From: an uncultured archaeon
GTDB taxonomy: Archaea; Altiarchaeota; Altiarchaeia; JAFGQM01
NCBI GenBank assembly: GCA_964391885.1
Contig: CAYMNU010000082.1
Coordinates: 1-52,334 of the forward strand
DNA: 52,334 nt
Direction of reading: 5' to 3'
Shown: one piece after another, positions 1,729 through 19,261 of the stretch
Layout: every line of letters starts with the position of its first letter
How positions within the stretch are numbered: the stretch's first letter is position 1
The notes under the pieces: model-generated
Database searches by the model: none
The model's input: the letters and a program-made list of their open reading frames with translations, nothing else
What the model was told of the DNA's origin: nothing
Made by a program: the position numbers and the translations under genes

Positions 1729-1950
1729 ATGGGACAATGGATACAGGCCATAGACGCGCCGGCCGGCACGTCTACCTGGCTTAATTTAGAAAAAGCAGTG
1801 AGCATCGAGGTCGCAGTCTCCAGAACTGCTGGCAACGAGCTGTTTTATGTAAAGGCCAAGGTAGTCGAAGGGGGCCATGAGCTGATTTATTCGCTCGGCA
1901 AGTTCAAGACGGTTAAGGATGCGGAAGGCTTTATAAAAAAACTGGTATAG
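1729..1950 (+). CDS. Hypothetical protein (73 aa)
   Basis: Protein-like composition with no competing gene; no family recognised. Confidence 0.6.
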   Translation: MGQWIQAIDAPAGTSTWLNLEKAVSIEVAVSRTAGNELFYVKAKVVEGGHELIYSLGKFKTVKDAEGFIKKLV

Positions 1951-1956
1951 CCAAGG

Positions 1957-2151
1957 TCAGCATTTGGCAGCGCCCTTCATGATTGCAGTCATGGGAATGC
2001 AGACTGAATTCAAATAGTCGAATTTGCCCCTGAGGCAAATGTCGTTTATCTCTATCTTCAAATCCACCCGCTTGTCCCTGTCCGCTTCTCTGACCATGAT
2101 GGCAAAAAGGCTTCTTGCTTCGTCAATTAGTGTTTGGTTTATTTCATTCAT
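1957..2151 (-). CDS. Hypothetical protein (64 aa)
   Basis: Convergent with 1729-1950 and fills the gap; no family recognised. Confidence 0.5.
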   Translation of the reverse strand: MNEINQTLIDEARSLFAIMVREADRDKRVDLKIEINDICLRGKFDYLNSVCIPMTAIMKGAAKC

Positions 2152-2245
2152 GTTGGCCGCCTGTTTAGAATCAGCCCATATTTAGATGTTTGGAGCATAA
2201 AGATGGCTATATGGCGTTTACCTTGACTTAGGTTCTAAATACGCG

Positions 2246-2383
2246 ATGGAAAGCAAAAAATACATATGCTCAAATTGCTGCAAGCCTGTGGATTACATGG
2301 CTAAGGGCAGCGCCCTCTGCGAGACCTGCAAGAAGAACCTTCCGACTGCGAAGTTCAACAGCAGAATCAAGAAGAAGGAATAA
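2246..2383 (+). CDS. 45-aa Zn-ribbon microprotein (not in ORF track)
   Basis: MESKKYICSNCCKPVDYMAKGSALCETCKKNLPTAKFNSRIKKKE*; CxxC-x12-CxxC. Confidence 0.6.
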   Translation: MESKKYICSNCCKPVDYMAKGSALCETCKKNLPTAKFNSRIKKKE

Positions 2384-2418
2384 TGCAGTTTGAAGTGAAA
2401 TCGTCACAAGATTAGTAT

Positions 2419-4176
2419 TTACTCAATCTTCTCTGCTATAAAGAAGCGCTTCAGCTTCCAGCCCAGTTTCTTGCCAATGCCGGGCTCCTTGGTCTCCTCG
2501 ATGAAGTCTATTTCCTCAGGCGTCAAACTCTCTTTCCATTCCTTCATCTCTTTCTCATGGATGGCCTGGGGACCCTGCAAGGCCTCCTGATCCTGCGGCT
2601 CAGCCATCTGCGATACGGCCTTTTTTGCCTGCTCCTGCCGAATCTCTGTGTCGGTGCCGACTATCCTGGTCTTAAGCGCGCCGATTATGCCCTTATTGCT
2701 CTCGATGCGGTTGCCGAGCATGGGCACTCTTGAGCTGGATTGCTTTGTCTTGACGAGGTCGACTGCAACCCCCCCGTGCTTAGAGCGCCTGACCCTGACG
2801 TTGGTAAGAACCGGCCTTTCGAGCGTCTCGCTTGTTATAAGGGCAGTGCCCATCGAGAGGTTTTTCATCACGTCTTCAAGGTCGGGGCTGAAATTCTCAA
2901 GGCTCTTCGAGATGGCGTTGATGTCGTTGGGGTTGGTAACTTTCAGTATTATCTGTGTATTGGCCTGTGAAAGCACGTTCTTGTCCACTTTTGCAGGCCT
3001 CTGCGTGACTATGCCAAGGCCCATGCCAAACTTTCTGCCTTCGGCCGCAACGGTCCTCAGTATGCCAAGCGACATCGCAGTCCCCACGCCCCGCTCAGGG
3101 CAGAAGCGATGCGCCTCTTCGACAAGGAAGAAGAAAGCAGGAATCTTGTTCTGCTTTCTAGCCTCGAAGAGGTCGTACGAGAGCTTCGAGACTACAAGCT
3201 CCTGCATCTCGGGTTTTATTCCTTTGAGGTTGATTATCGTCATCTGGCCTTTTTTGGCTATCTCCTCGAGCTTGATGCCCTCTGTGGAAAAGATGTTGGT
3301 ATCAAGAAGCGCCTGGAGGCCTGCCACAAGCCCCCACTTGGCATTGGTGTCCGAGAGCTGAAGGTGCTGGATTATGTATTCGAGGGTGTAATCCCCGCTG
3401 CCCTTCAGCTCGTTTATCGCCTGGTAGAGAAGCGCCTGCTGGCCGCCGGTGAGGGAGGTGGGCAGGATGTCAATAATGTCTTTGGCATCCATGTTCTTGT
3501 CGCTCAGCTTGAACTCATGGTCTGCCGTAGGATTGATCGACTTATTGGGTGTGTATTCCACCACATTCTGAAAGGCCTTCGGGCTCACCTGGTACTTGAC
3601 GAACTTCTCGTAGTCTGCGGGAGAGTCGTTGGCTATCTTGAGCGTGTAGTACTCACCGTGCGGGTCGATTATGACGCAGGGAACCTCCTTGTCTGCCAGC
3701 TCTTCCAGAAGCACGCCCACCGTGTAGGACTTGCCTGCACCCGTCTTGGCTAAAACACTCAGGTGCTTTTGGATTAATTTATTTGCGTCAAGGTATACCT
3801 TTATGCCATTCTCCCCTTCAAGGGTACCTACATAAAGGCCCGCATTGCCTGGCATCTCCAGGCCGAGTATGCTTCTGATAAGGGTCTGGTGAGCCTTGAA
3901 TACCCTCTCTTCCGGCTTGAAGGGTGTCTTGGGAAGCTTAATCAGGCCCTGGGCGTCCTTGTAACCGATGACCCGAATCTTGGCAAGCATCCTCTCGGTG
4001 CCCTTCCTGTCATCCCACTGCCTGCGGACATGGGATATCTGGCCGAGTACCCATCCATACATCTCATGGTGTATCTTGATGTATGTGCCACCTTCGGCAA
4101 GCTGCCTGTTCTCTACGAGTATCTCAAAGGATGTGGGTTTGACCTCTCCGTAGACATAGCCTACTATTTCGGGCAT
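2419..4176 (-). CDS. herA: HerA/DUF87-family ATPase with N-terminal HAS barrel
   Basis: Walker A 'AKTGAGKS', Walker B 'LVEEAHRF', 'EGRKFG..TQRPA' motif, HAS-barrel-like N-terminus. Confidence 0.85.
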   Translation of the reverse strand: MPEIVGYVYGEVKPTSFEILVENRQLAEGGTYIKIHHEMYGWVLGQISHVRRQWDDRKGTERMLAKIRVIGYKDAQGLIKLPKTPFKPEERVFKAHQTLIRSILGLEMPGNAGLYVGTLEGENGIKVYLDANKLIQKHLSVLAKTGAGKSYTVGVLLEELADKEVPCVIIDPHGEYYTLKIANDSPADYEKFVKYQVSPKAFQNVVEYTPNKSINPTADHEFKLSDKNMDAKDIIDILPTSLTGGQQALLYQAINELKGSGDYTLEYIIQHLQLSDTNAKWGLVAGLQALLDTNIFSTEGIKLEEIAKKGQMTIINLKGIKPEMQELVVSKLSYDLFEARKQNKIPAFFFLVEEAHRFCPERGVGTAMSLGILRTVAAEGRKFGMGLGIVTQRPAKVDKNVLSQANTQIILKVTNPNDINAISKSLENFSPDLEDVMKNLSMGTALITSETLERPVLTNVRVRRSKHGGVAVDLVKTKQSSSRVPMLGNRIESNKGIIGALKTRIVGTDTEIRQEQAKKAVSQMAEPQDQEALQGPQAIHEKEMKEWKESLTPEEIDFIEETKEPGIGKKLGWKLKRFFIAEKIE

Positions 4177-10173: not shown

Positions 10174-10273
10174 GTCCTGAGTCTTCAGTCTGCGGTCTTG
10201 GTTAAGGTTTTTCTAAGCGATAGTTCTAATTACTCGCTTCGGTCCTGAAGACCGGAGACTGCAGACCGCAGAC
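10174..10273. repeat. Inverted arrays of GTC/GAC heptamers (same family as 639-772)
   Basis: gtcctga-gtcttca-gtctgcg-gtcttgg (10174-10201) versus tgaagac-cggagac-tgcagac-cgcagac (10246-10273). Confidence 0.7.
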
Positions 10274-10279
10274 TTTCTT

Positions 10280-10413
10280 GGGCCCGTGGTCTAGCTCGGT
10301 TATGACGCCGCCTTTACAAGAACCCCTTTTCAGAAAAGGTGTTTCATCCCCAAAACGGGGTGAAGGGGTTTTAAATGAGGCGGAGATCGTTGGTTCAAAT
10401 CCTACCGGGCCCA
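10280..10413 (+). tRNA. tRNA-Val(UAC) with a 59-nt canonical intron (10319-10377)
   Basis: Acceptor GGGCCCG/CGGGCCC, anticodon stem CCGCC/GGCGG, TAC at 10315-10317, T-loop TTCAAAT. Perfect BHB (TTTA/TAAA helix, bulges CAA and TGA). No encoded CCA; one U-U mismatch in the T-stem. Confidence 0.95.
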
Positions 10414-10439
10414 CTTACCATATCCTAGCTTTAGCTCGT

Positions 10440-10651
10440 GGGCCCGTATCTCAAGGTCATTGGCAAAGAGGAAGTGTCCATCTTTCGATACCGGGCCCTG
10501 TGCACTTTAGCTCATGGGCCCTTACTTCGAGGTCATGTGCAGAGAGGCCGCATCCATCTCCCAATACCGGGCCCGTTTACCTATAGTTCAATGGGTCCGT
10601 ATCTCAAGGTCGTATGCCAAGGTTATGTTTCCACCCTTCGATACCGGGCCC
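10440..10651 (+). repeat. Three 59-nt hairpin units downstream of tRNA-Val (10440-10498, 10516-10574, 10593-10651)
   Basis: Ungapped alignment with 45/59 (unit 1 vs 2) and 47/59 (unit 1 vs 3) identity. Each unit ends in TACCGGGCCC, the tRNA 3' end. Confidence 0.9.
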
Positions 10652-18999: not shown

Positions 19000-19072
19000 G
19001 CCCCAGTAGTGTAGTGGCCTATCATACAGCCCTGTCGAGGCTGTGACCCGGATTCGAATTCCGGCTGGGGCG
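19000..19072 (+). tRNA. tRNA-Asp(GUC)
   Basis: GCCCCAG/CTGGGGC acceptor, CAGCC-CTGTCGA-GGCTG anticodon arm, CCGGA-TTCGAAT-TCCGG T-arm, discriminator G. Confidence 0.97.
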
Positions 19073-19100
19073 TCCTACATGTCTTAGCGTAGCCTCGGCA

Positions 19101-19166
19101 CCACCAGCCTTGCGCCAAGATCATATGCCTAGTTGATGTATCCACCTTGTCGTTCCGGCTGGGGCG
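19101..19166 (+). repeat. Single unit downstream of tRNA-Asp, homologous to the tRNA-Val units
   Basis: Core 19116-19146 is 25/31 identical to 10605-10635. Ends in TTCCGGCTGGGGCG (19153-19166), identical to tRNA-Asp 19059-19072. Confidence 0.85.
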
Positions 19167-19261
19167 CTCATTTTACTTTGCTTAGCTTTGGCTTCGATTG
19201 ATAAACAAAACCAGTGCCTTTTCCATCTATTTTTTAACAATGCCCGATAATTCTAGCGTAT

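Follow-up and report, generated by a model that had tools for sequence, protein, structure and literature searches.

A hairpin module with one conserved core and tRNA-matched arms downstream of tRNA genes in a family of uncultured archaea

The nearest documented phenomenon to the one described here is that of the tRNA-linked repeats (TLRs) of bacteria. In Escherichia coli these comprise the 178-bp repeats of tyrT/tyrV together with rrA, rrB and rrF; they follow a tRNA or rRNA gene directly, are oriented like it, and at their 3' end repeat 18-19 bp of the 3' end of that gene (PMC8144298). TLRs often stand in tandem, one to five per locus, with 22 of them at 10 loci in E. coli, and most are without known function; RrA, RrB and RrF are products of read-through transcription followed by processing, and it has been proposed that the repeated end directs a 3' processing like that of the parent RNA (PMC8144298). 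We analysed a stretch of 52,334 nucleotides (hereafter the window) from an uncultured archaeon of the class Altiarchaeia, which is contig C82 of assembly G000 (1.13 Mb in 86 contigs, 49% G+C, estimated 84% complete). In this window a tRNA-Asp gene is followed by a short hairpin that ends with a copy of the tRNA's own 3' end and begins with an arm complementary to this copy. Such units, with one homologous core and with arms rewritten for each tRNA, stand behind most tRNA genes of this genome and are inherited with them in its family.

The tRNA-Asp(GUC) gene lies on the forward strand at 19000..19072 (Rfam RF00005, 59.3 bits; also called by ARAGORN), does not encode CCA and ends with the discriminator G at 19072. 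Its last 14 nt, TTCCGGCTGGGGCG (19059..19072), hold the end of the T-loop, the 3' strand of the T-stem, the acceptor stem's 3' strand and the discriminator; we call this sequence X, and its complement X'. Exactly two copies of TTCCGGCTGGGGCG are present in the window, at 19059-19072 and 19153-19166, where none is expected from 100 shuffles. Directly after the tRNA comes a trailer, TCCTACATGTCTTAGCGTAGCCTCG (19073..19097), which is an unpaired spacer according to the alignment of 29 trailers and to RNAalifold, in which it shows no conserved pairing. It is followed by the 5' arm X', GCaCCaCCAGCC (19098..19109), placed by the folds and by a table of arm registers, by a conserved 44-nt core (19111..19154; covariance model R1, 49.8 bits, E 5e-11, and covariation), and by the 3' arm, which is the second, exact copy of X (19153..19166). 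The segment 19098-19167 folds as a hairpin, whose outer helix pairs GCaCCaCCAGCC with GGCTGGGGcGC; this pairing spans the discriminator, reaches into the T-stem strand and is interrupted by a single bulge and a single mismatch. The core forms a 9-bp inner helix (GCGcCAAGa/cCTTGtCGt) around an internal loop, TCATATGC / (G)TATCCA, and a variable tip. Past the unit a second trailer-like copy, CTCATTTTACTTTGCTTAGCTTTGGCTTCG (19167..19196), is followed by no hairpin, as is also seen after many other last units. All these features lie on the strand of the tRNA.

A second locus of the window carries three units in tandem. The tRNA-Val(UAC) gene (10280..10413, forward strand; Rfam 49.7 bits; ARAGORN with introns) has a 59-nt intron in its anticodon loop, like the many tRNA genes of this genome that contain introns, and is followed by its own trailer, CTTACCATATCCTAGCTTTAGCTCGT (10414..10439, by sequence comparison). 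Unit 1 (10440..10498; R1 54.8 bits, fold z = -2.66) consists of a GGGCCCG arm, the core and ACCGGGCCC, which is the copy of the tRNA-Val end; unit 2 occupies 10516..10574 (R1 44.6 bits) and unit 3, with a G.U at acceptor pair 4, occupies 10593..10651 (R1 48.8 bits), all on the forward strand. The original prediction, made from the letters of the window, had claimed that the element behind tRNA-Asp shares its core and its trailer with the Val units while its ends match tRNA-Asp, and a recount agrees: positions 19116-19146 are identical to Val unit 3 (10605-10635) at 25 of 31 positions, to unit 1 at 21 of 31 and to unit 2 at 20 of 31, the two trailers have CTTAGC..TAGC(C)TCG in common, and the Asp unit is longer than the 59-nt Val units by about 6 nt. 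The claimed 14-nt copy of the tRNA-Asp end is exact and the claimed complementarity of the two arms is borne out by the folds, with the bulge and the mismatch already mentioned; a small correction is that the 5' arm is the complement of the 3' arm and not a copy of the 5' end of the tRNA.

How widely the layout occurs was followed through the whole genome, with tRNA genes called by ARAGORN (29 genes) and RF00005. The core was searched with an nhmmer profile and then with R1, which replaced a loose regular expression that gave 1100 chance matches. A scan downstream of the 29 tRNA genes finds the same layout behind most of them, that is, a trailer of about 25 nt and then a hairpin in which the 3' arm copies the last 10-16 nt of the gene's own tRNA and the 5' arm is complementary to the 3' arm. 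The last 11 nt are repeated with at most one mismatch behind 17 tRNAs, and more diverged copies follow Val-GAC, Arg-UCU (contig C11) and Ala-UGC. The nhmmer profile gives 17 core matches at E<0.05, with R1 scores of 44.6-63.8 bits (E 1e-9 to 1e-15), which lie 34-191 nt 3' of a tRNA gene and on its strand, with one exception: the match at C35:30687-30722 stands within an array of four units with a common arm, TCCCAGCCTCAGCG, and no detectable tRNA upstream. The genome holds no core copies away from tRNAs, the weaker nhmmer matches being noise inside coding sequence, and all units are oriented like their tRNA. Thus the prediction that the core would be linked to tRNAs genome-wide holds for all 17 core sites, with the tRNA-less array as its qualification, and unit repetition and tRNA linkage are far beyond chance. 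The frame of trailer and arms can also hold other interiors: a palindromic module of the form CACGA-hairpin-TGTGCACAG-hairpin-CTCGTG (type 2, the core described above being type 1), an interior specific to Ala units, and plain hairpins.

The core evolves as a structure. Its consensus is tatG.CaAGGTCATatGCc...GtgTCCACCTtg.CaTC, in which a 9-bp helix closes a conserved internal loop and the tip varies freely. When 56 cores are aligned to R1, 90.7% of the cells are paired, against 26-49% in slid controls, and double changes occur in 8 of 11 pairs; the compensatory cells number 72, a figure reached by none of 500 shuffles. As this alignment was fitted to R1, the counts lean somewhat towards the structure. 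An independent analysis of 25 trailer-plus-unit sequences with MAFFT and RNAalifold recovers both helices, with compensatory change in 10 of 14 pairs. The loop sequences are conserved family-wide and the tip is saturated with changes. At pair 17:45, 31 copies have G.U and 20 have G-C, and this pair therefore fits only the tRNA-sense strand. Selection acts on a folded single strand; the compensatory changes, the conserved loop beside a saturated tip, the strict co-orientation and the vertical inheritance point to the sense strand, in the simplest case as RNA from read-through of the tRNA.

The arms follow the neighbouring tRNA. The partners of the 5' arm are the discriminator, often position 74, the seven acceptor bases and two to four bases of the T-stem 3' strand, so that the outer helix mimics the coaxial acceptor/T-stem "minihelix", a small internal loop and the core standing in for the T-loop. 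Mismatches in the outer helix cluster at pairs 2:71-4:69, and G3:U70 is absent from the Ala units. Where the X of a unit differs from that of the tRNA, X' sometimes compensates inside the unit, for example in unit 2 of Arg-UCU in the source genome. In silico, the distal X is as good a partner for the 5' strand of the tRNA as the tRNA's own X.

The distribution of the unit was established in eight genomes of the source family, which represent three genera, and in 53 genomes from eight other families of the class. The R1 core is found in seven of the eight, with 3-17 copies each, and in none of the 53. We inspected the flanks of 40 core sites in the relatives of G000: nearly every core follows a tRNA whose end its arms copy, and these tRNAs include Ile, Val, Ala, Gly, Ser, Thr, Arg, Lys, Trp, Glu, Phe, Cys, His, Asp and Pro. 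One core type stands behind about 20 tRNA species and as many different X. No tRNA lies upstream of five cores, which belong to four of the 40 sites: the first stands at the end of a contig, a second is preceded by masked sequence, a third is a weak match without arms, a fourth comes after an isolated X that lacks a tRNA body, and the fifth comes after a tRNA-Met-like gene whose T-loop contains an insert. The arms also track substitutions in the tRNA itself, as in tRNA-Ser(GGA), where CCCAA/GGTT in G000 and G002 has become CCCAG/GGCT in G007. Hence the predicted covariation of the arms with the acceptor and T-stem of the neighbouring tRNA is found both within one genome and over three genera.

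The tRNA-Met-like gene, at L158 ~300-700 on the reverse strand (contig C39 of G006), was missed by ARAGORN and Rfam; its insert of about 37 nt lies directly 5' of the ATCCCACCCCCGCTA end, which is where the modules sit in units, and the gene could have a T-loop intron or be disrupted. Outside the set of genomes, an exact-pattern scan of GTDB genome contigs returned one archaeal locus (L076, which is Ser-UGA of G001), most of its matches being a cyanobacterial and a Chloroflexi coding sequence. Of five metagenome contigs that carry the 3' half of tRNA-Asp, three are empty, another bears a type-1 unit and the last a different repeat, made of X plus trailer.

The relationships between cores bear on their age. 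For units behind the same tRNA in different genomes, the identity of the inner parts is 0.76 (n=13); for units behind different tRNAs it is 0.64 within a genome (n=85) and 0.63 between genomes (n=424). Cores group by tRNA and not by genome, and the units are therefore old, inherited with their tRNA since before the genera split; the inner-part identities give no sign of recent spread or of homogenisation within a genome. Arrays change locally, as shown by Val-GAC of G002 with two near-identical 93-nt units, by partial X' remnants after some last units and by decayed partial units at array ends. In one genus of the family (g3, represented by G003, 0.8 Mb) no units stand behind 23 tRNAs except a single degenerate, chimeric one. 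This hairpin, the only unit-like one of G003, lies downstream of tRNA-Ala(GGC) at L175; its 5' arm resembles the end of tRNA-Ala, the 3' arm and the flank that follows it belong to tRNA-Gly, and it looks like a recombinant via the shared TCCCGGC segment.

The sequence between tRNA and hairpin is conserved as well. In 29 units the trailer follows a family consensus of CTTAC, a T-rich run and then CTTAGC-TTAG-CTCG; it is a sequence motif and not a structure, since RNAalifold on the 25 sequences gives no conserved pairing of the trailer with core or arms. Spacers between hairpins measure 17-30 nt. Runs of at least five T occur in 14% of the trailers between X and the next unit. The canonical TTTTTATA promoter box is found 55-70 nt upstream of tRNAs, and a role of the trailer as promoter was rejected for most units, since TTTTTATA occurs in two trailers only and is there placed too close to the hairpin. 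The small number of T runs and the near absence of these boxes are consistent with read-through from the tRNA. RNase P RNA is present in the genome.

Compared with TLRs, the units agree in position, in orientation and in the copied 3' end, at the 17 core sites of G000 and at the sites in six relatives. They differ in the length of the copy, which is 10-16 nt without CCA here and 18-19 bp in E. coli; in the inverted copy, and with it the acceptor-like hairpin, which is undescribed for TLRs; and in the shared 44-nt core, which most tRNA genes carry here and which is archaeal and confined to one family. The relation is one of analogy of layout only. Integrative elements leave attachment (att) sites, direct repeats which duplicate the 3' part of a tRNA gene and start in or near the T-loop. 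X likewise stands at the end of the tRNA and of the unit, and X repeats bound an insert with a Fic gene and an island edge in this genome; the units, however, are 60-95 nt long and non-coding, with an inverted copy and a core behind about 20 tRNAs, whereas att sites follow one att core per element family and depend on a tyrosine recombinase, which was undetected in six of the eight family genomes. In the mascRNA/MALAT1 signals and the dicistronic tRNA-small nucleolar RNA genes, RNase P or RNase Z cuts a tRNA-like structure, or a small RNA adjacent to a tRNA, out of a longer transcript, and we would expect such a release for the units as well; the known cases differ in being cloverleaf-like or of box C/D type and in not being matched to a neighbouring tRNA. 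Integron attC sites resemble the units as imperfect inverted repeats that fold single-stranded, with a conserved structure, preferred mismatch positions and an arrangement in arrays, but they need IntI, attI and cassettes with open reading frames, none of which is found here, and the spacers here are 17-30 nt. Rfam models, applied with the gathering cut-offs as well as with permissive E-values to the window and to loci from seven relatives, returned only tRNAs and sub-threshold noise, including weak mascRNA matches that lie on the tRNAs themselves. As for the original claim that the element is undescribed, it appears to stand for the layout, which is found neither in Rfam nor in a full-text literature search; it does not extend to the copied 3' end, which E. 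coli TLRs have in common with the units (PMC8144298).

Our preferred reading, to which we give about an even chance, is that the unit is a structured RNA module specific to the family, which would be co-transcribed with its tRNA, mimic the acceptor/T-stem and be excised by the enzymes that process tRNA ends. By analogy, it would be an archaeal hairpin variant of the TLRs, and the read-through and processing that we propose would mirror those proposed for RrA, RrB and RrF (PMC8144298). The module would consist of the pyrimidine-rich trailer of about 25 nt and a hairpin of about 60-65 nt, with an outer helix made from X' and X around the 44-nt stem-loop. Read-through transcription would put it into the primary transcript of the tRNA, where it would fold as a mimic of the stacked minihelix of its own tRNA; RNase P would then cut at the 5' side and tRNase Z past the discriminator copy, and the conserved core (GGUCAU..GC / G.GUCCACC) would bind a common, putative partner. 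Because X is repeated, slippage between its copies would create and delete tandem units. One of the two readings offered by the original prediction, a processing module tailored to each tRNA, comes close to this; processing itself, like transcription and any partner, we infer from the anatomy and its conservation.

Several observations weigh against this proposal. The outer helix has about 1.4 non-Watson-Crick pairs per unit, with a peak at acceptor pairs 3:70 and 4:69, and because it usually pairs the discriminator, and often position 74, in addition to these mismatches, it is not an ideal substrate for RNase P or tRNase Z. Among arm mispairs the G.U type (14) is about as frequent as the A.C type (15), and the two are about equal in the main inner helix too; the strand call depends mainly on the single pair 17:45, and folded sense-strand DNA fits equally well. 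The module is dispensable, since G003 lives in the same family with almost no units. Moreover, an exact copy of the neighbour's end is unnecessary for a processing signal and looks like a footprint of recombination or duplication; the exact copies, the arrays and the larger X-bounded DNA inserts of G000 all fit an origin by DNA recombination. A recombinational origin followed by constraint at the RNA level is compatible with both views.

A serious rival, which we nevertheless consider distinctly less probable than the RNA module, is that the units are cassettes of recombination at the DNA level, with X as an att-like hot spot at the tRNA end and the units as miniature non-coding inserts or scars. 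X' may then have been kept since the substrate is a folded single strand, as in integron attC sites, or since X' hides the extra X and so keeps it from competing with the true 3' strand during folding of the tRNA. X is indeed a recombination-prone site. In contig C69 (locus L001) a 1.45-kb insert is bounded by direct repeats that comprise the 3' end of tRNA-Ser(GGA) and about 28 nt of flanking sequence (1540-1585 and 3000-3044 of L001); it holds a Fic/DOC-family gene (1886-2821, reverse strand; Pfam E 7.9e-21) and no integrase. The four-unit array without a tRNA, at ~30560-30850 of contig C35 on the reverse strand, comes directly after heptamer repeats and methylase-like genes, which by eye look like DNA methyltransferase, and probably forms the right-hand end of an island whose target was a tRNA located past the end of the contig. 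The exactness of the 3' arm beside a drifting 5' arm, the tandem arrays with their near-identical 93-nt duplicate in G002, the decayed units at array ends, the type-2 palindromic module that within units always stands directly 5' of X without target-site duplication, the equally good pairing of the distal X with the tRNA 5' strand and the lack of units in G003 point in the same direction. Against such cassettes, reverse transcriptase (RVT_1, PF00078) and the IS110 DEDD domain (PF01548) are found in none of the eight family genomes, and the tyrosine recombinase PF00589 is undetected in six of them (G000, G001, G003, G004, G005 and G006), four of which are rich in units. Since these six genomes are 64-87% complete, its absence from all of them by chance is unlikely, and the source family may be without such a PF00589 recombinase or possess one that has diverged strongly. 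In most other genomes of the class PF00589 gives a match of about 150 bits, which we take to be a Xer-type recombinase. Recombination at a single att site, besides, cannot yield one core behind about 20 X sequences. Recent movement is not seen, as cores group by tRNA and identity within a genome equals that between genomes, and a loop conserved family-wide beside a saturated tip, with no ongoing mobility, argues for a function in the host.

Another reading, which we regard as doubtful, is that of a set of small RNAs that act in trans, as partners of their own tRNA or of tRNA enzymes. The units would provide, in parallel to the tRNAs and with one per tRNA species, minihelix mimics that cannot be charged, in which the core recruits one common protein and the arms serve as mimic, decoy or guide; we think it rather improbable that they act in this way, as decoys or regulators of, for example, RNase P, tRNase Z, the CCA-adding enzyme or the aminoacyl-tRNA synthetases, or as the RNA component of a complex that recognises tRNA ends. 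Possible roles are the titration of processing, CCA-adding or charging enzymes and the marking of substrates for surveillance. In favour of such a set, most tRNA species have roughly one module each, retained for as long as the family has existed; the core is conserved in sequence; and the arms contain the discriminator and those acceptor pairs in which the identity of a tRNA resides, with mismatches at 2:71-4:69 and no G3:U70 in Ala units that could block charging of the hairpin by the synthetases. The proposal is nevertheless purely inferential, with a putative protein partner, X' in Arg-UCU unit 2 matches the X of its unit rather than the tRNA, and genus g3 lives without the units. The other reading of the original prediction, a tiny tRNA-targeting mobile element with programmed arms, comparable to IS110 bridge RNA, group II introns or IS200/IS605, now appears improbable to us. 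It would account for a constant core with arms complementary to the tRNA end, and the TTAC with which many trailers start resembles, we presume, the target of IS608. The first trailer bases vary, however (TTAC, TCAC, TCAT, TTAA), the element itself would carry both the "guide" and a copy of the target, and the co-occurring integrase, reverse transcriptase or IS110-like recombinase that had been foreseen is missing to the extent given above. Young, near-identical copies at different tRNAs are not seen, and the core is absent from IMG/VR viral contigs, where three chance matches fall in coding sequence. That the units are decayed tandem tRNA duplicates is the least probable of the readings and very improbable indeed. 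Both unit ends resemble tRNA ends, and the 5' half of the T-arm is kept in some other units of the family (Thr-UGU, Leu-UAG and unit 1 of Asp in G007); yet one homologous core stands behind about 20 tRNAs and no tRNA model matches the units. The original prediction had already set simple duplication aside, and for type-1 units the shared core refutes the idea.

Several known classes were considered and rejected. ARAGORN and RF00005 match the true tRNAs only, which sets aside a tRNA or tRNA pseudogene. A miniature inverted-repeat transposable element or a palindromic element of the IS200-IS605 kind does not fit arms that vary with the tRNA, the lack of copies away from tRNAs and the variable trailer start; IS110 with its bridge RNA and retroelements are set aside by the absence of PF01548 and PF00078. 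For a guide small RNA of box C/D or H/ACA type, no boxes were seen by eye on either strand, and sR30 matched in antisense only, at 11.9 bits against a 38-bit threshold; an antisense kink-turn is contradicted by the G.U at 17:45. For a reading of the type-2 module, or of the segment made of X, trailer, X' and core, as an intron, no bulge-helix-bulge motif was seen by eye at the junctions.

Some further elements were noted around the tRNA genes. The type-2 module, more fully CACGA-[8-9-bp hairpin]-TGTGC(A/G)CAG-[hairpin]-CTCGTG, is nearly palindromic, with stems that covary, and is found in G000 at L001 1585-1705 (contig C69), at C85:975-1030 and in contigs C14, C23, C86, C27, C30 and C44. Some copies lie apart from tRNAs, within other inverted repeats; the Ile-UAU unit has it in G000 and not in G005 or G006. 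Many G000 tRNAs have a conserved leader motif, AAATAAGCC(G), 10-35 nt upstream, in the interval from the TTTTTATA box to the 5' end of the tRNA, for example at Ala-GGC (C8), Ala-UGC (C76), Val-GAC (C11) and Cys (C10). Just 5' of several tRNA genes there are GAAGACC/GGAGAC repeats with a period of 7, which abut X copies without a tRNA body (window 10225-10275; L001 2920-2998; contig C85 of G000 after the Ile-UAU unit; L211 and L213 of G029), and their complement GGTCTTC is found 3' of tRNAs or of the last unit. These repeats are older than the hairpin units, since they are found in another family of the class too; possible roles are those of a leader or trailer element, a protein-binding site or a terminator.

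The covariance model R1 can already annotate loci that tRNA finders and Rfam now miss. The units offer an archaeal counterpart to the 45-year-old puzzle of the bacterial TLRs, with a richer comparative signal, as 56 aligned copies with covariation are at hand. If they are products of DNA recombination, tRNA gene ends would gather and retain hairpin cassettes without a resident integrase, which would bear on the origin of tRNA genes as integration hot spots. If they are expressed, the family would possess a new class of archaeal non-coding RNA, unusual in that one core is combined with arms rewritten for about 20 tRNAs, and this would give a direct handle on how RNAs other than tRNAs exploit or regulate the enzymes that process archaeal tRNA ends.

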